Assembly: GCF_003018255.1 (NCBI RefSeq)
Contig: NZ_CP027440.1
Direction: 5' to 3' (one strand)
Source: Escherichia coli
GTDB taxonomy: Bacteria > Pseudomonadota > Gammaproteobacteria > Enterobacterales > Enterobacteriaceae
Length of the DNA: 64,000 bases
Shown here: positions 24,095-61,810 of the stretch, piece after piece
Layout of the letters: the number at the start of each line of letters is the position of its first letter
Numbering within the stretch: position 1 is the stretch's first letter
Translations under genes and position numbers: made by a program
Notes under the pieces: generated by a model
Database searches by the model: none
What the model was told of the DNA's origin: nothing
What the model saw: only the letters and a program-made list of their open reading frames with translations

Positions 24095-25093
24095 TTATTT
24101 CAACGACATATGCGTGGCAACGGTAATATTTTGTGGTGACGGTTTTCCGGCAATTAAGCGGAATAATAACTCGCAGCTTTGTTGCCCTAACTCCTGCGTC
24201 GGAACATCGATGCCGCCCGGTGCAGGCGTTAAAATAAATGACAGCGTTTCATTGCTATAGCCCACCACCGCTAACTGCTGCGGAATAGCAATATTTTTCT
24301 CTGCTGCCGCACGATAAATGCTCATTAATTTCAGGCTGTCAGTGGCAAATACGGCTTCTGGCAACGGCGACTGGCTTAATAATTGCCGTGCGGCTTGCAA
24401 GGCTGTTTCATGGGTATAACCGCCGTCAACAATCCATTCATCACGCACTGCAATATTATGCGCAGCCAGACTTTGCTTATAGCCATTAACGCGGTCAACC
24501 GAGACATGGACATCAAGCGGAGCATGCAGGCAGGCAATATTTTGATGCCCACTTTCAATTAACGCATCGGTCAACGCAATGCTGTCGCCAAAATTATCGG
24601 TATCGACAGAATAAACATGGGCATATTGACCTTCAACTTTGCCAATTACCACCACCGGAATATCATATTTATCGAGTTGGGCAAAAAATGACTCATCCGC
24701 TGGCGAACTTAGCATAATAATGCCTTTAATCATTTTCTGCTTAATTTTGCTTTCGCATTTTTGTAAGTCTTCTGCCAGGTTGTGCGACGTCTGCAATATC
24801 ACGTCGAAACCTTCTTCTTCAGCTTTGGCGGTGATGGCATGTAAAACTTCCGAGAAAAACGGATTACCCGCCGTAGTTTTGGTCGAACGGGTAGAAATCA
24901 CCATAATGGCATCAAAACCCGAAGAGGTCAGCGCGCGTGCCAGCTTGTTTGGTTGATACTGTAATTCTTCAATGGCCCGTAACACTTTTTCGCGCGCTTC
25001 CGGGGAGATATTGGTTTGCTTATTCAGCACGCGTGATACGGTGGATTTTGATACGCCTGCAACCCTGGCAATATCATAAATAGTAGGGGACAT
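24095..25093 (-). CDS. ycjW: LacI-family transcriptional regulator YcjW
   Basis: 332-aa ORF; N-terminal HTH ([20 protein letters not shown]) plus periplasmic-binding-protein-like fold. Confidence 0.88.
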
Positions 25094-54567: not shown

Positions 54568-57500
54568 GTGAATATGGCAGTAAAGATTTCAGGTGTACTG
54601 AAAGACGGTGCAGGTAAACCGGTACAGAACTGTACAATCCAGCTGAAAGCAAAACGTAACAGCACCACGGTGGTGGTGAACACGGTGGCCTCAGAAAATC
54701 CGGATGAAGCCGGGCGTTACAGCATGGACGTTGAGTACGGTCAGTACAGCGTTATTCTGTTGGTGGAAGGATTCCCGCCGTCACATGCCGGGACCATCAC
54801 CGTGTATGAAGATTCCCGACCCGGTACGCTGAATGATTTTCTCGGTGCCATGACGGAGGATGATGCCCGTCCGGAGGCTCTGCGCCGTTTTGAACTGATG
54901 GTGGAAGAGGTGGCGCGTAACGCGTCCGCGGTGGCACAGAACACGGCAGCCGCGAAGAAATCAGCCAGCGATGCCAGCACATCAGCCCGTGAGGCGGCAA
55001 CCCATGCGACTGATGCTGCAGATTCAGCACGTGCAGCCAGCACGTCAGCCGGACAGGCCGCTTCGTCGGCTCAGTCAGCGTCTTCCAGCGCAGGAACGGC
55101 ATCAACAAAGGCCACTGAAGCCTCAAAAAGTGCTGCCGCTGCAGAGTCCTCAAAAAGCGCGGCGGCTACCAGTGCCGGTGCGGCGAAAACGTCAGAAACG
55201 AATGCGGCAGCGTCACAACAATCAGCAGCCACTTCTGCATCCACCGCGACCACGAAAGCGTCAGAAGCTGCCACCTCAGCCCGGGATGCGTCGGCCTCAA
55301 AAGAGGCAGCGAAATCATCAGAAACGAACGCATCATCAAGTGCCAGTAGTGCAGCTTCCTCGGCAACGGCGGCAGGAAATTCCGCGAAGGCCGCAAAAAC
55401 GTCTGAGACGAATGCAGATAACAGCGCACAGGCGGCAGCAGACTCACAAACTGCATCAGCAAACTCCGCGACAGCAGCCAAAAAATCAGAAACCAACGCG
55501 AAAAATAGCGAGGCAGCAGCAAAGAGCAGCGAAACCAACGCTAAAGCCAGCGAAACTAATGCTAAATCCAGTGAAACAAACGCGGCGAAATCTGCGGCGG
55601 ACGCACTTAATTATCGCAACCAGGCGCAAGTAATTGTTGGCGATAATATCGGTCTTGGTGAAGTTGCCATGACCTGCACTGATATCTCTGTTGAGCCATC
55701 AGGTTATATTGGATTTGTCAGGATTTACATCTCAGCGAAAGGTTATCCATCAGTAGCGTCTAGTGCCGGTGATAATCTTATTTCTGGTTATATAGTTAGA
55801 TCAGAAGTGTCAACAAAAAGATATTCCGGTCTATTTGTTGGTTCAGATACAAAATCATTGTATTCGTACATTTACAGCCAAAGTTCTGGCCCGCAATGGA
55901 TACGTCATACCCGCAGAGATGAATTAAGCCGCTTTGGTCAAAATGAATCAACAACTCGTATGTATGGTCCAACTGGTGATCGTTTCTTTGAAATCCATAC
56001 TAACGGGAGTTGGGGAGTTTATGATTCTTCTTCTGGACAATGGTCTCCGTTAGGTTTAGCCCAGGGCGGTACTGGTGGAAGAACTATCGAGCAAGCACGT
56101 GCGAACTTGCGGGTAATGTATGAGCAAAAAGCTGGCCTTGCTAATACTGACCTAAACACCCTTACCGGTGAATATTCTGGTTTCTATCAACAACCAACGA
56201 GCGCTTACGCAACAGAAGAATTAAATTACCCAATCGGTCTGGCGGGCGCTTTAATAGTGCTCCAAACGAGAGCCAACACTGCTTCTTCCTGCGTTCAGGT
56301 GTACTACCCTTATAATAATCCGGGAATTACTTATAGACGAATATATGAAGGAGGAAGCGGTACCTGGTCTGAATGGAAGAGAGATGTATCAACAGAAAGG
56401 GTTGAAGAGGGAAAAGAAACAACTTACGTATATTCTACGTATTCTTCAGGCGCACCACGCTTACAGGTTTCCAAATCTGGTTTGTGGGGTTGTCATAATG
56501 GCACTGGCTGGTTGCCATTAGCTGTTGGGCAAGGAGGTACAGGTGCGACAACAGTAGAAGATGCGCGAAACAACTTAAGTCTTGGCGAAAGTAGCGCAGT
56601 TAAATTTAAAAACCTTACTTTAACCGAAGCGCTCGACACGACATTAGGACTGCTTACAAAAACAGGACGAGACTGGAACACGCAGCATACTGATAACATT
56701 AATAAATTTATACCAATTGCAGGCAGTACAAACGGCCCGGCAGGTTCTATGGTTCTTGGCGGCATTCATGTTCAATTTAGTAAAAATTATGCTGTGCAGT
56801 TCGGAGGCCGCAATTCCGGTTTTTGGGGAAGAACAATTGAAAATGGAACGACGCAGGAATGGAAGAAATTACTAACAGTAGACGATCTCAATTCATCTAC
56901 CGATCTTGCTGTCAGGTCATTAACCACATCTAACCCGGTAAAATCTGGCGGAGGGCGAATTGATGTCCTTGGAAGCACGTCAGACTATAGCAAAATGGAT
57001 TGCTTTGTACGTGGGTTTGATAGCACCGGTAATTCTCTCGCGTGGGCGTTGGGTTCATCAGTCGGCGTAAGTAAGATGCTGTCGCTAAAAAATTTCTTTA
57101 GCGGAGCTGAGATACTGTTAAATGGTAATGACGGCGCGGTTCAACTCAAAACAGGTGCTGTTAACGGGGCTAAAGCGCAGGCGCTCACTATCAACAAGGA
57201 TGAGGTTAACTCAACTGTTGATTTAACTCTTACAAAACAAACAGGGACTGGAAATCGTTTTGTTTTACAGAACTTAGGTAATACAGAACTATCATTTGCC
57301 GCAAAAGTATGGGGATCAAGTGATCGACAAAACGTTTTTGAGGTTGGAACGTCTGCTGCGTATCTGTTTTATGCGCAAAAAACGTCAGCAGGCCAGTTGT
57401 TTGATGTAAATGGCGCTATTAATTGCACAACGCTGAATCAGTCATCAGACCGCGACCTTAAAGACGATATTCTCGTTATCAGCGACGCGACGAAAGCAAT

Positions 57501-57879
57501 CCGTAAAATGAACGGATACACCTACACGCTCAGGGAAAACGGGATGCCTTATGCTGGCGTTATTGCACAGGAAGTAATGGAGGCGATACCAGAAGCTGTG
57601 GGATCGTTTACTCATTACGGTGAAGAGTTGCAGGGACCAACGGTTGACGGCAATGAATTACGTGAAGAAACACGTTATCTGAATGTTGACTACGCCGCCG
57701 TGACGGGGTTACTTGTTCAGGTCGCCCGTGAAACAGATGGTCGCGTTACCGCGCTGGAAGAGGAAAACATAACGCTACGTAAAAATCTGGCAACAGCAGG
57801 CACCCGGATCAGCACTCTGGAAAATCAGGTAAGCGAACTGGTTGCACTTGTCGGGCAGTTAACAGGAAGCGAACATTGA
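54568..57879 (+). CDS. stf: Side tail fiber protein (lambda Stf-like N-terminus, Ala/Ser/Thr-rich repeat shaft, C-terminal intramolecular-chaperone/S74-like domain)
   Basis: 1103-aa ORF; N-terminus MAVKISGVLKDGAGKPVQNCTIQLKAK...; SETNA-type repeats across 55050-55620; C-terminus SSDRDLKDDILVISDATKAIRKMNGYTY plus coiled coil. Confidence 0.85.
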   Translation: MNMAVKISGVLKDGAGKPVQNCTIQLKAKRNSTTVVVNTVASENPDEAGRYSMDVEYGQYSVILLVEGFPPSHAGTITVYEDSRPGTLNDFLGAMTEDDARPEALRRFELMVEEVARNASAVAQNTAAAKKSASDASTSAREAATHATDAADSARAASTSAGQAASSAQSASSSAGTASTKATEASKSAAAAESSKSAAATSAGAAKTSETNAAASQQSAATSASTATTKASEAATSARDASASKEAAKSSETNASSSASSAASSATAAGNSAKAAKTSETNADNSAQAAADSQTASANSATAAKKSETNAKNSEAAAKSSETNAKASETNAKSSETNAAKSAADALNYRNQAQVIVGDNIGLGEVAMTCTDISVEPSGYIGFVRIYISAKGYPSVASSAGDNLISGYIVRSEVSTKRYSGLFVGSDTKSLYSYIYSQSSGPQWIRHTRRDELSRFGQNESTTRMYGPTGDRFFEIHTNGSWGVYDSSSGQWSPLGLAQGGTGGRTIEQARANLRVMYEQKAGLANTDLNTLTGEYSGFYQQPTSAYATEELNYPIGLAGALIVLQTRANTASSCVQVYYPYNNPGITYRRIYEGGSGTWSEWKRDVSTERVEEGKETTYVYSTYSSGAPRLQVSKSGLWGCHNGTGWLPLAVGQGGTGATTVEDARNNLSLGESSAVKFKNLTLTEALDTTLGLLTKTGRDWNTQHTDNINKFIPIAGSTNGPAGSMVLGGIHVQFSKNYAVQFGGRNSGFWGRTIENGTTQEWKKLLTVDDLNSSTDLAVRSLTTSNPVKSGGGRIDVLGSTSDYSKMDCFVRGFDSTGNSLAWALGSSVGVSKMLSLKNFFSGAEILLNGNDGAVQLKTGAVNGAKAQALTINKDEVNSTVDLTLTKQTGTGNRFVLQNLGNTELSFAAKVWGSSDRQNVFEVGTSAAYLFYAQKTSAGQLFDVNGAINCTTLNQSSDRDLKDDILVISDATKAIRKMNGYTYTLRENGMPYAGVIAQEVMEAIPEAVGSFTHYGEELQGPTVDGNELREETRYLNVDYAAVTGLLVQVARETDGRVTALEEENITLRKNLATAGTRISTLENQVSELVALVGQLTGSEH

Positions 57880-57930
57880 TATCCTTCAAGCCCTGAAGGA
57901 GGCTGTTCCTGGTACGTTCAGACTGTTGTT

Positions 57931-58086
57931 GAGCTGGAAATCGCAACGGAGGAAGAAACTTCGTTGCTGGAAGTCTGGAAAAAGTATCGGGTGTTGCTGA
58001 ACCGTGTTGATACATCAACTGCACCTGATGTTGATTGGCCAGCAGCACCGAAGTGTAATTCATTAGAACTCATCACCTGTGAATAA
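57931..58086 (+). pseudogene. tfa: tfa (tail fiber assembly protein) 3' remnant, copy 1
   Basis: Frame 57883-58086 translates ...[50 protein letters not shown], matching the last about 40 aa of lambda Tfa; no N-terminal part. Confidence 0.6.
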
Positions 58087-58689
58087 TATCTGTTTTTGAG
58101 TAAGTTAGTAATAATCACTTAAATGTGTTATGAGTTTGTTGAGGCGTGATTTGCAATAGGATAGAGAGTACGATTATGGATTGAGAATAAGAAAGCGCCA
58201 TGAAAGAGTTTCATGGCGAGTACATAAACGTACAAAATATGATGAAAGTAGAGTGGCATAAGCCACTATGTTAACTTATAGCAATAGGGAAGATAAGTAA
58301 ATAATATTTCTTGAGTATAGTGTAAGTCGTTCATTGTAAAGCGTTAATGTTATCTATATTGTTTATCTTAAAATAAGGTGTATAAACCAAACTTTTGAGC
58401 TAAAAGTTTAAAGAGTATTAGTGCAAAAATAATGTTTAATAAGATAATCAATTTGCTTTGTATCTTCATTTCGAAAGATTGCTAAGTAACGTTAATTACC
58501 AAAACGATAGATCAGAATTATCTTAGAGTCAATGACTTTAGGTTTGTTTATAATGTAAATATTTTCTATTTGTTATAAGTTTTCTTAATATAGTCACCCA
58601 TGCAACTTGTTCCGTGTGGAGATTAAAGGTTAAAATTTAATGCGAAGATGGAATTATATTATATTTGTTATAATTAATTTAACCTTAAC

Positions 58690-58785
58690 ATCGTTGCTGG
58701 CGGCATGGAAGAAATATCGGGTCTTGCTGATGTCGTGTTGGCACTTCCTTAGTGCCGGATATCGAGTGGCCAGCTGCACCTATAG
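58690..58785 (+). pseudogene. tfa: tfa 3' remnant, copy 2 (frameshifted)
   Basis: [13 protein letters not shown] and, in another frame, PDIEWPAAP; diverged paralog of the 57931-58086 fragment. Confidence 0.5.
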
Positions 58786-58987
58786 GGTAAAAATATAGTT
58801 CTATATGGGAGCGCTATTTTTACAATATAAATGCTGAACGGAAGAATCTAACCAGTTACAAAAAACATAGTTATGTAATCCAGTTGCCTGGGCATGCGTG
58901 TGATGTTGATAGCTATTACTGTATCTTCCGTTCACTTACCTTATTGTGAACAGTTATATATAATTTGATCTGCTCTTATTCAGCCTG

Positions 58988-60190
58988 CTAGGCTGCTGTA
59001 AATCTTCGATACTTTCTTAACATAAAGATCATGATTAGAATAATTGAAAGTAAGTAAACAATCCAAATGGTGATATTTCGTTCAATTAAAAAGCTACCAA
59101 TTCCGCCGATCACTGAAGGAATCACCAGAGAAGCGGCCCCCATTAACGCAGATGTGGCACCCAGACTGGTACGTTGGCTGGACATAGTTAGGTAAGTATA
59201 AAGTGATTCGAACATACCTCCGGCAAACATCAAAACAATGAAGAATAATATAAAAACATTGACATGATGAACGAATATTATTAGCGGAGTGCACAATACG
59301 ATAAATGAAGCAATGAGCTTCAGCCATAAACTCAAAATTTGTGGTGCAGACCGCTTCTTAAGTAGTTTACCTGATAGTGCTGCTCCCAGCAGAAGGAATC
59401 CTCCAATAATTGATGAGATAACACCAAATTGCGTAGATGAGTATCCATACTTAACCATCAAAATAAATGGGGAAGCTGTGACATAACAATAAATTAGAGA
59501 GAATGAAAGTCCAAGAGAAAGGCAAGGTAGATAAAATCTTGGTTGCTTACTTATCTCTTTGTACGTAAGAAATGATGATTTTAGTGAATATGTAATCCGT
59601 TTTTTATGACTGAGTGTTTCAGGGAAGTTAAAATAGACATACGTTAATGTTACAACAGAATATCCTAATATCATTAGAAAAATTGCACGCCATCCCCATA
59701 CATCATTAATTATTCCTCCCAGCAGTGGAGAAGCAATAGGCACGACACCTTCAATAGTTATGATAATAGCGTACAGTGTAGCAGCCACTGAACCGCGTGT
59801 TACATCACGAACGGCACTAATTGCTGTAACCAGAGTTATTGATATAGAAAGCCCCTGTATGATGCGTATTGTAAGAAACGTACCCAATCCGGTCGAGAGT
59901 GTGAGGCAATATGTTGTCACACAATAAATAATAGCACCTGAAAGCATAATTCTTCGACGACCAATAGAATCAGATAATGGGCCAAAAATTAGCTGTCCAA
60001 AACCTATACAAAGGGTATAAACCATGATAGACAATTGCATGGACGGGATGTTTTGTCTAAATTCTTTTGCGATGTCAGGAATTGAAGGCAAATAAGTGTC
60101 CACACCTAGAATGCCCATAATAGTCAGCAGCGATAGGCCAATAGTAAAGAAAAGTATATTCTTTCTGTGAATAACAACTTGTGATTTCAT
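58988..60190 (-). CDS. MFS transporter, 12-TMS DHA1-like (Bcr/CflA-type) exporter; AT-rich
   Basis: 400-aa polytopic ORF with MFS motif region (GPLSDSIGRRRIMLSG); strongly AT-rich codon usage relative to the core genes. Confidence 0.75.
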   Translation of the reverse strand: MKSQVVIHRKNILFFTIGLSLLTIMGILGVDTYLPSIPDIAKEFRQNIPSMQLSIMVYTLCIGFGQLIFGPLSDSIGRRRIMLSGAIIYCVTTYCLTLSTGLGTFLTIRIIQGLSISITLVTAISAVRDVTRGSVAATLYAIIITIEGVVPIASPLLGGIINDVWGWRAIFLMILGYSVVTLTYVYFNFPETLSHKKRITYSLKSSFLTYKEISKQPRFYLPCLSLGLSFSLIYCYVTASPFILMVKYGYSSTQFGVISSIIGGFLLLGAALSGKLLKKRSAPQILSLWLKLIASFIVLCTPLIIFVHHVNVFILFFIVLMFAGGMFESLYTYLTMSSQRTSLGATSALMGAASLVIPSVIGGIGSFLIERNITIWIVYLLSIILIMIFMLRKYRRFTAA

Positions 60191-60952
60191 TATTTATCAC
60201 CATGAATAAATTAAAAGAATGAAAAAAACTCCATTTAAATGGAAGGAGGTGGATAATTATCGTGTAGGCAATACAACAGAGTTGAAAAGAACTGTCAAAC
60301 TTTTAACTCAAAAAAGTGAGATGTGAATCACAGACATAAAAATCATCTTTTTCAGCCCTATGGTTCAGTTAAATTTGATTGTTATCGTACGAAGGTTTGA
60401 ACGTGTGTGTGCGTATGCGGTATTTTTTCTTGCGAGTGCCGGAGTTATGAGAGCGTTGTATTAACCTTCATAATCTGACCTATTCAATTGATTCCAGTAC
60501 ACCAATGGGTATTTTGGTGTTATGGTATGTGACTCCAAATAAAATGGAGCGTGAACTGATAGTTGTGCGAACAAAAGTCGGACTAGAAACCGCTCGGGTA
60601 CAGTGGCGAATTGGAGTTGGCGACCCAAACTGACCTAGGAACAATCGTTGCAGATCGGACGATTAATTTCATCAGAAATTCCTCGCTAAAAGGTGGCTAT
60701 CACTGTGATGTTAACGTATCTAATTTGTACAAGAAATTTCTGCGGGGGAAAATGAAACCGCAGACTCGTTGTATGCAAAAACGTGCTGCGGCTAACTGGT
60801 GAACTTTCGATAGTGCGGGTATTGAATGATTTCTAGGCGTTATCGATTTTACGTATTTTTTGCATGATAGAATTCGTACCTCCTCCCAACGACCTTCCAT
60901 GGCTTTCCGGACTTCTGTAGGCCGGCGGACGATGCTGTCCTCGGATGTTGTG

Positions 60953-61810
60953 CTAATTGGGTGATAACAGATCCTGTGTATGGGAGTTTCCCTTTGTGCG
61001 TGCGTTGATGCTGGTAACGGTAAACGTCATGATGAACACGACCGCGAATAAGACGACAATCGTCGGAGCTGGTGCGCTGTCGATAAAAAAGGACAACCAG
61101 ACACCAGTCATTGACACTATTACCGATATGCCAGTCGCCAGTAGGAGCGCAATATGAAAGCGTTGTGTCAGGAGTACCGCAATGGCGCCAGGCGCTATGA
61201 GCAGAGAAATGGAGAGAATGATACCTACCGCTTTCAGCGTCGCCACAATGGTCAGAGAGACCATGCACAGCAGCCCATAATGCAGCCATCTCGTATGCAA
61301 ACCGCTTACCTGCGCCTGTTGATAATCAAAGCTGAACAGCAAAAAATCCCGCCATTTTACGCTAATAACAAGTGTAACCAGCCCGGCAATAATCATCGTC
61401 TGGATTATATCGCCGATGGTTATCCCGAGCATGTCGCCGAAAAGAATATGGTCAAGATGTACGTCTGGTTTGACTGCAATATACAAGATCAGACCTGCGG
61501 CAAACATGCCAGAAAAAACAATCCCCATCACTGTATCTTGCTTGATTCGGCTGTTGTCTTTCAGGTATCCCGTCGCCACCGCGCAGAATACTCCGGCGAC
61601 GAATGCCCCTGTAGCTAAAGGTAACCCCAGAATCCAGGCAAGCACGATGCCAGGAAAAACTGCATGACTCATCGCGTCACCCATCAGTGCCCAACCTTTC
61701 AGGACCAGAAAGACCGACAGCAGCGCACAGGGTATGGAAACTACCAGTGAAATCAGCAGTGCGTGACTCATAAAGGTGAACTGCAGTGGCTCCAGTAATA
61801 ATGCCATCAT
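60953..61810 (-). CDS. sitD: Mn/Fe ABC transporter permease SitD
   Basis: 285-aa polytopic ORF, last gene of the sit operon. Confidence 0.85.
   Translation of the reverse strand: MMALLLEPLQFTFMSHALLISLVVSIPCALLSVFLVLKGWALMGDAMSHAVFPGIVLAWILGLPLATGAFVAGVFCAVATGYLKDNSRIKQDTVMGIVFSGMFAAGLILYIAVKPDVHLDHILFGDMLGITIGDIIQTMIIAGLVTLVISVKWRDFLLFSFDYQQAQVSGLHTRWLHYGLLCMVSLTIVATLKAVGIILSISLLIAPGAIAVLLTQRFHIALLLATGISVIVSMTGVWLSFFIDSAPAPTIVVLFAVVFIMTFTVTSINARTKGNSHTQDLLSPN

Follow-up and report, generated by a model that had tools for sequence, protein, structure and literature searches.

What occupies the 762 bp between an MFS efflux gene and sitD in the Escherichia coli DNA studied here? The stretch analyzed, called the window throughout, is 64,000 nucleotides long, and an earlier note made from its letters alone had drawn attention to an unannotated spacer of about 760 bp at this place, proposing that it might hold the promoter and regulator sites of the MFS gene, a decayed gene such as an insertion sequence (IS) or regulator remnant, or an sRNA. 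The spacer runs over 60191-60952, from the MFS start codon at 60190 to the sitD stop codon at 60953. It is unannotated, as had been claimed: RefSeq/PGAP places no feature under it in the matching genomes AR436 and GPEC1356 (100% identity) and Br_112_kylling (99.5%). None of its ORFs is conserved. It is bounded by the following two genes.

58988-60190, minus strand: MFS efflux gene of the Bcr/CflA family, an intact ORF of 400 aa on the left flank of the spacer
60953-61810, minus strand: sitD, on the right flank, taken from the ORF list and annotated as the iron/manganese ABC transporter permease SitD in the RefSeq entries for AR436 and SCU-104

The full-length spacer was found at 99% identity or more in 35 of 5426 complete E. 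coli genomes. About 370 additional sit-positive E. coli carry only query positions 568-762, corresponding to 60758-60952 of the window, at 87-94% identity and on the chromosome every time. Because these additional genomes match just this portion, the spacer must be composite, and we consider it highly probable that it is a three-part mosaic produced by successive cargo insertions at the tail-fibre/b-region end of a lambdoid prophage. The gene order in AR436 is J, lom, stf, tfa, a tfa fragment, the MFS gene, the spacer, sitDCBA, uspF and ompN, and the locus forms the right end of a lambdoid prophage adjoining uspF/ompN. In K-12, uspF and ompN are neighbours of the Rac prophage, at the end that carries stfR-tfaR-pinR in this order. 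In SCU-104, which represents the common sit-positive type, about 14 bp separate a tfa fragment from the final ~198 bp of the spacer, to which sitD is joined. As a separate observation, the sit-proximal part of the spacer had 407 matches, and no plasmid of the collection was among them. Sit operons are also plasmid-borne, for example on ColV-type plasmids, and the matches suggest that such operons are without this 3' flank.

The middle part of the spacer is a pseudogene that aligns with the invertase PinE in three pieces.

60383-60755, plus strand: pseudogene of a serine DNA invertase of the Pin/Gin/Hin family, comprising the 3' two-thirds of the gene (about aa 57-182 of 184)
60415-60630, plus strand: first piece of the remnant, PinE aa 70-142
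60621-60701, plus strand: second piece of the remnant, PinE aa 140-166
60707-60748, plus strand: third piece of the remnant, PinE aa 169-182

By blastn, window positions 60413-60760 match genes annotated as pinE or 'site-specific DNA recombinase' at 71-73% identity in more than 1200 E. coli genomes, and plasmids are matched as well. The e14 match takes in the final 350 nt of pinE (555 nt in all) up to the stop codon, with which the TGA at 60753-60755 of the window aligns. A tblastn search of the whole window with PinE gave E = 3e-19 over 60415-60701, which contradicts the earlier impression that the small ORFs of the spacer contain no recognisable domains. The three pieces show 55-67% amino acid identity, and no two of them share a frame; the remnant contains at least three frameshifts and three in-frame stops. 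A nucleotide alignment suggests that weak homology continues up to about aa 57 (near 60378) in a further frame. The longest ORFs over the remnant encode 42 and 63 aa in different frames, compared with about 180-190 codons in an intact gene. Both of the small ORFs that had been picked out earlier are fragments of this pseudogene: the position given for 60611-60802 was exact, while the other ORF spans 60505-60633 and has its internal ATG at 60544, not 60543. The GT-rich tract gtgtgtgtgcgtatgcg is present too and represents decayed LGRSMRH codons of pin, but it is located at 60403-60419 rather than 60405-60421. The idea of a decayed gene was therefore correct in kind but not in identity, since the gene is a pin/gin invertase and neither an IS nor a regulator. 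The earlier note had agreed to give way to clear homology with a known intact gene; the homology is clear, but the gene is not intact here.

DNA invertases such as PinE, PinR and PinQ (of e14, Rac and Qin), Gin of Mu, Cin of P1 and Hin of Salmonella flip tail-fibre or flagellin segments. The remnant is like the E. coli pin genes in sequence and in place, being downstream of stf/tfa in a lambdoid prophage by uspF/ompN. Unlike Pin, Gin, Cin and Hin, it has lost the first ~56 codons, a single reading frame, a detectable Resolvase domain and the inverted crossover sites. About 170 nt are deleted from the 5' end of the gene; the Fis-dependent recombinational enhancer lies in the 5' part of hin and gin. 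The catalytic N-terminus, with its serine nucleophile near residue 9-10, is absent throughout the 64-kb window, and there is no second copy of pin in it. A pattern search allowing up to three mismatches detected no crossover sites of the 26-bp gix/hix/pix type (core AAACC-NN-GGTTT) near the spacer; there are two matches in the entire window, at 36.8 and 37.4 kb, where 3.85 are expected by chance. The frame-repaired translation of the remnant has no Pfam match to Resolvase (PF00239), and its score for HTH_7 (PF02796) is 22.5 bits (E = 1.2e-4) against a cut-off of 23.8, with the three frames joined by hand and stops masked. This remnant cannot be a working invertase. In a three-way alignment we counted 70 window-specific substitutions, 44 of them GC to AT vs 15 AT to GC, and the GC content is 42% in the window remnant, 50% in pinE and 54% in the corresponding remnant of Salmonella phage FSL SP-016. 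The remnant is probably without function, and its AT-biased decay looks neutral.

The left part of the spacer belongs to a cassette that consists of the MFS gene and its upstream region and spans approximately 58996-60382.

60191-60382, minus strand: upstream region of the MFS cassette, with a predicted promoter and a predicted 5' UTR of about 73 nt; homology ends at 60382

The MFS protein matches Pfam MFS_1 (1.5e-39) and the NCBIfam Bcr/CflA family TIGR00710 (204.5 bits, cut-off 200.9). In the IMG/VR contigs L008 and L009, which have an integrase gene upstream of the MFS relative, homology to the spacer is limited to 60191-60382. In Citrobacter sp. On2M (L016) the match is confined to window positions 58996-60382, and the neighbours are a (GGTGTT)n repeat and ybjL/ybjM. 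Because these three pin-less contexts stop matching there, we place the cassette boundary at 60382, the start of the pin homology. Invariant columns in an alignment of five loci (A3) amount to 19% beyond 60382 vs 54-91% inside. The GC content of the cassette is about 32-44% vs about 50% in its neighbours. The cassette resembles phage 'morons', independent cargo genes inserted between phage genes and each equipped with a promoter and a terminator, in its low GC, in its own conserved promoter region and in its presence at prophage ends in several unrelated contexts. It was absent from the plasmids searched, where the sole matches were pin homologues. Between the window and AR436 there are four SNPs in the 1203-nt MFS gene and none in the spacer; codon 66 (window 59995) is intact in the window and is a nonsense codon (Q66*) in AR436, where RefSeq splits the gene into two CDS. 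In the Citrobacter locus the long (GGTGTT)n tandem repeat, at 1860-1960 of L016, is just past the cassette boundary and is followed by hairpin-like sequence and then by ybjL and ybjM. A 103-aa ORF in this locus, considered as a divergent regulator, is an artefact of the repeat.

The junction between cassette and remnant also occurs in Salmonella phage FSL SP-016 (KC139516), which matches window positions 58931-60839 at 81% identity and is annotated with a 'bicyclomycin efflux system' plus 'Gin'. This phage has the same MFS cassette, the same junction with a 5'-truncated invertase and the same hairpin downstream, but its gin is followed by msgA/dinI and int, and the window has sitDCBA instead. 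Moreno Switt et al. 2013 (PMC3728262) list the bcr homologue of FSL SP-016 as a putative resistance gene, with no expression evidence, and the word 'invertase' does not occur in their paper. The junction sequence TTAAATTTGATTGTTATCGTA is common to the window and FSL SP-016, and three IMG/VR contigs have the junction too. Because FSL SP-016 shares it, the truncation that joined the MFS cassette to pin would have occurred once, before the lineages split. An MFS gene beside an intact pin was not found in IMG/VR, searched by protein and by junction, or in GTDB genomes, searched by promoter core; the IMG/VR and GTDB searches for MFS relatives gave the same truncated junction or pin-less contexts.

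Identity between FSL SP-016 and the window is uneven along this region. It is 87% (nucleotide) and 88% (amino acid) for the MFS coding sequence, 83% for the upstream region with one 100-bp stretch at 93%, and 78% for the hairpin segment, yet the pin remnants are only 61% identical, vs 78-93% in the flanks. Given this low value, a single ancestral truncation requires a later homologous exchange of the 3' part of pin. We infer that such an exchange took place in the FSL SP-016 lineage, which would be plausible for mosaic phages. The truncated gin of FSL SP-016 is one open frame of about 116 codons with 88% amino acid identity to PinE, its lineage-specific changes are mostly AT to GC, and it looks like a different allele that was functional until recently.

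This allele raises another possibility, namely that a truncated invertase serves as a short DNA-binding protein or as a partner of another invertase. The gene is open in contig L010 as well as in FSL SP-016, again at 88% identity to PinE, and the fragment exceeds the Pfam thresholds for both Resolvase (78.9 bits in FSL SP-016) and HTH_7; the GenBank entry at this place in the phage is an 84-aa 'Gin'. For the window the explanation is refuted by the frameshifts and stops: homology is spread over at least three frames with three stops, so that only the ORFs of 42 and 63 aa remain, HTH_7 is under its cut-off in spite of manual frame repair, and neither the catalytic N-terminus nor crossover sites are present. 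Its probability at this locus is close to negligible.

The upstream region of the MFS gene shows a different conservation pattern, with the following elements.

60251-60325, minus strand: predicted promoter core of 75 bp, with 69 of 76 columns invariant in five loci
60317-60332, minus strand: dyad TGTGA-N6-TCTCA, with both half-sites in five of five loci and 13 of 16 columns invariant
60231-60242, no strand assigned: CCATTTAAATGG, a perfect palindrome of 12 bp within the predicted 5' UTR, followed by a T7 run on the minus strand

The core is 91% invariant although the MFS proteins of the five loci are only 84-88% identical, and the parts of the upstream region that flank it have 54% (distal) and 76% (proximal) invariant columns. 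On the minus strand we find a perfect -35 hexamer TTGACA at 60298-60293, a 17-bp spacer, a TG at 60278-60277 and a -10 hexamer TGTATT at 60275-60270. Transcription is predicted to start near 60263, and a GGTGA Shine-Dalgarno sequence is located 6 nt ahead of the MFS ATG. Promoter prediction on the minus strand, which had been recommended as a check, depended on stringency: a stricter consensus scan missed this predicted promoter since position 2 of the -10 hexamer is not A, but in a relaxed scan TTGACA-17-TGtTGTATT was the best hexamer pair (10/12 plus the TG motif). The hexamers, a spacing within 16-18 bp and conservation among relatives are what would be expected of a sigma-70 promoter at 60298-60270. 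Taken together, the footprint in five loci and the strong consensus match support 60191-60382 as the predicted MFS promoter region, in agreement with the earlier suggestion that the spacer could contain it.

The two symmetrical elements may be regulatory. The TGTGA-N6-TCTCA dyad is centred about 29 bp upstream of the middle of the -35 hexamer and about 61 bp ahead of the predicted start. The CRP consensus is TGTGA-N6-TCACA, and judged by consensus alone the dyad resembles a CRP site with class-I spacing. The palindrome CCATTTAAATGG reads CTATTTAAATAG in L008, L009 and L016, a double change that is symmetric and leaves the dyad intact; the hairpin that the palindrome forms as RNA is weak (-4.4 kcal/mol, z = -0.83). 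Some regulator may use this sequence as an operator.

Efflux genes often have divergent regulators, and the conservation of both dyads (60317-60332 and 60231-60242) upstream of the MFS gene could be taken as a trace of one, so that the spacer would be what is left of such a regulator or of an insertion sequence. The homology searches speak otherwise. In 5426 E. coli genomes, plasmids and phages, the only sequences matched by sensitive blastn were invertase/recombinase genes and phage non-coding DNA, with no transposase and no regulator under any match, and the pin-less cassettes end at 60382 and are followed by an integrase or by the (GGTGTT)n repeat and ybjL, not by a regulator. We give this explanation almost no weight beside that of a promoter region joined to an invertase pseudogene.

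Several other candidates in the upstream region were rejected. A riboswitch or attenuator in the MFS leader is not indicated by folding, as the single-sequence fold has z = +0.58 and the alignment fold is without compensatory pairs. Translational attenuation of the cmlA type would need a conserved leader peptide, and the candidates MEFFSFF (window) and MLLIYSW (relatives) are each missing in the other group, as judged by eye in the five-locus alignment. The plus-strand ORF 60219-60326 stops after six codons in FSL SP-016 and was discarded as a gene.

The right part of the spacer is related to phage lambda and ends with sequence of the sit cassette.

60756-60793, no strand assigned: CCGCAG...CTGCGG, an imperfect hairpin that immediately follows the pin stop codon
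60758-60904, no strand assigned: non-coding segment like the lambda b region, with 85.7% identity to lambda 24162-24308 and relatives
60905-60952, minus strand: terminal 48 bp of the sit cassette, adjoining sitD on its 3' side and common only to sit loci

In lambda the segment 24162-24308 is located between ea47 and ea31, whereas its counterpart in the window is between the pin remnant and sitD; the CCGCAG...CTGCGG hairpin is found in both. The segment 60758-60904 is non-coding, since ORFs occupy different frames in HK629 and in the window; the minus-strand ORF 60700-60900 and HK629 gp27 were rejected as genes for this reason. Lambda homology ends at 60904, and the match of Salmonella phage SPF_0923 extends to a sit permease gene.

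The hairpin is kept in HK629/lambda, phi458, FSL SP-016 and the sit-positive SCU-104, and in FSL SP-016 and phi458 it lies between convergent genes. On the minus strand, which is the sit strand, it is followed by UUUCAUUUU, a tail that is U-rich but interrupted. The minus-strand structure (centroid, stem alone) has -14.3 kcal/mol; the stem is interrupted by an internal bulge, the loop measures 9 nt, and the z of -1.6 is unexceptional compared with shuffled sequences. In SCU-104 the stem is stronger and the tail is not U-rich. A simple consensus terminator scan did not list the hairpin. The earlier note's statement that sitD has no obvious terminator is only half right, as a conserved hairpin with UUUCAUUUU behind it on the sit strand makes a possible one. 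It is a candidate for a bidirectional or sit terminator about 160 nt past sitD.

Conservation of this hairpin across lambda-like phages could also point to an RNA, either an sRNA or a cis-acting element derived from the pin remnant or the hairpin and possibly antisense to sit read-through. The hairpin partly matches the 3' end of CssrB, an sRNA family of Shigella, and there is one weak promoter-like site on the plus strand at 60447-60474. With E = 0.47, the CssrB match scores 20.2 bits where the gathering score is 76, and it is restricted to the hairpin (model positions 1-5 and 137-180); no other family was found in the spacer when 57800-61400 was scanned with Rfam 15 at E <= 1. In the consensus scan for promoters and terminators the hits did not outnumber those expected from shuffling; promoter-like sites number 10, with 13 expected in shuffled sequence, and the z-scores of the folds are unremarkable. 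Neutral AT-biased decay of the pin part and its 61% identity to FSL SP-016 are the opposite of what a conserved RNA would show. An sRNA in the spacer, as had been suggested, is very unlikely in our view.

A somewhat less remote, still doubtful proposal combines several of these elements. The promoter core and both dyads could form a regulated MFS promoter with the pump expressed conditionally, and the b-region hairpin may be a shared terminator or processing element for sit in the window and msgA in the phage. If true, the prophage pump would be a lysogenic-conversion gene under host catabolite control or under another host regulator.

The three parts of the spacer suggest the following order of events. 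The ancestral phage would have had tail fibre genes followed by a pin-type DNA invertase, the hairpin and b-region DNA. A low-GC MFS cassette that included roughly 190 bp of upstream promoter sequence may then have replaced the sequence from the end of tfa through about codon 57 of pin, and this insertion would have removed the catalytic serine, the enhancer-bearing part of the gene and the crossover sites. The orphaned 3' part of pin (about 60383-60755, plus strand) would have decayed neutrally from then on through frameshifts, stops and AT-biased substitutions. Today 60191-60382 probably still serves as promoter and leader of the MFS gene, while 60756-60952 is lambda-like non-coding DNA abutted by the sit operon, where the conserved hairpin may end transcription arriving from sitD, as it formerly may have done for transcription from pin.

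The spacer is ordinary prophage debris of a well-known kind, and the homologous 'Gin' fragment of FSL SP-016 is already annotated. Proper annotation of the 762 bp would comprise a pseudogene of a pin/gin-family invertase and a predicted MFS promoter region, and past annotation the locus is of little importance. It does show the chromosomal sit island of E. coli to be seated in the b region of a lambdoid prophage by uspF/ompN. In the lineage represented by 35 of 5426 genomes there is a second cargo, a Bcr/CflA-type pump that is also found in FSL SP-016, whose insertion would have destroyed a tail-fibre inversion system. The cassette 58996-60382 with its conserved predicted promoter may prove useful as a clean starting point for work on expression and substrate of the pump.

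Left of the MFS gene, two C-terminal remnants of tfa are present in direct orientation at about 57964-58063 and 58690-58790. Rfam IS009 has matches at these remnants, outside the spacer, at 57819-58019 (91.7 bits) and 58675-58750 (32 bits), with a gathering score of 117. The window departs from the otherwise near-identical AR436 left of about 57982, over 54568-57982. Its tail fibre has 1103 aa and a C-terminal Peptidase_S74 intramolecular chaperone domain, with no intact tfa, while AR436 has stfR and an intact tfa. This looks like a swap of the tail-fibre module relative to AR436 with a breakpoint inside the first tfa remnant. The remnants flank a very AT-rich segment (24-30% GC) that was detected in 813 E. 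coli genomes, with identities of 60-90% in about 800. Within it there are terminator-like hairpins at 58218-58196 (minus strand) and 58522-58542 (plus strand) and an ORF for a hydrophobic peptide of 33 aa at 58368-58469 (minus strand).
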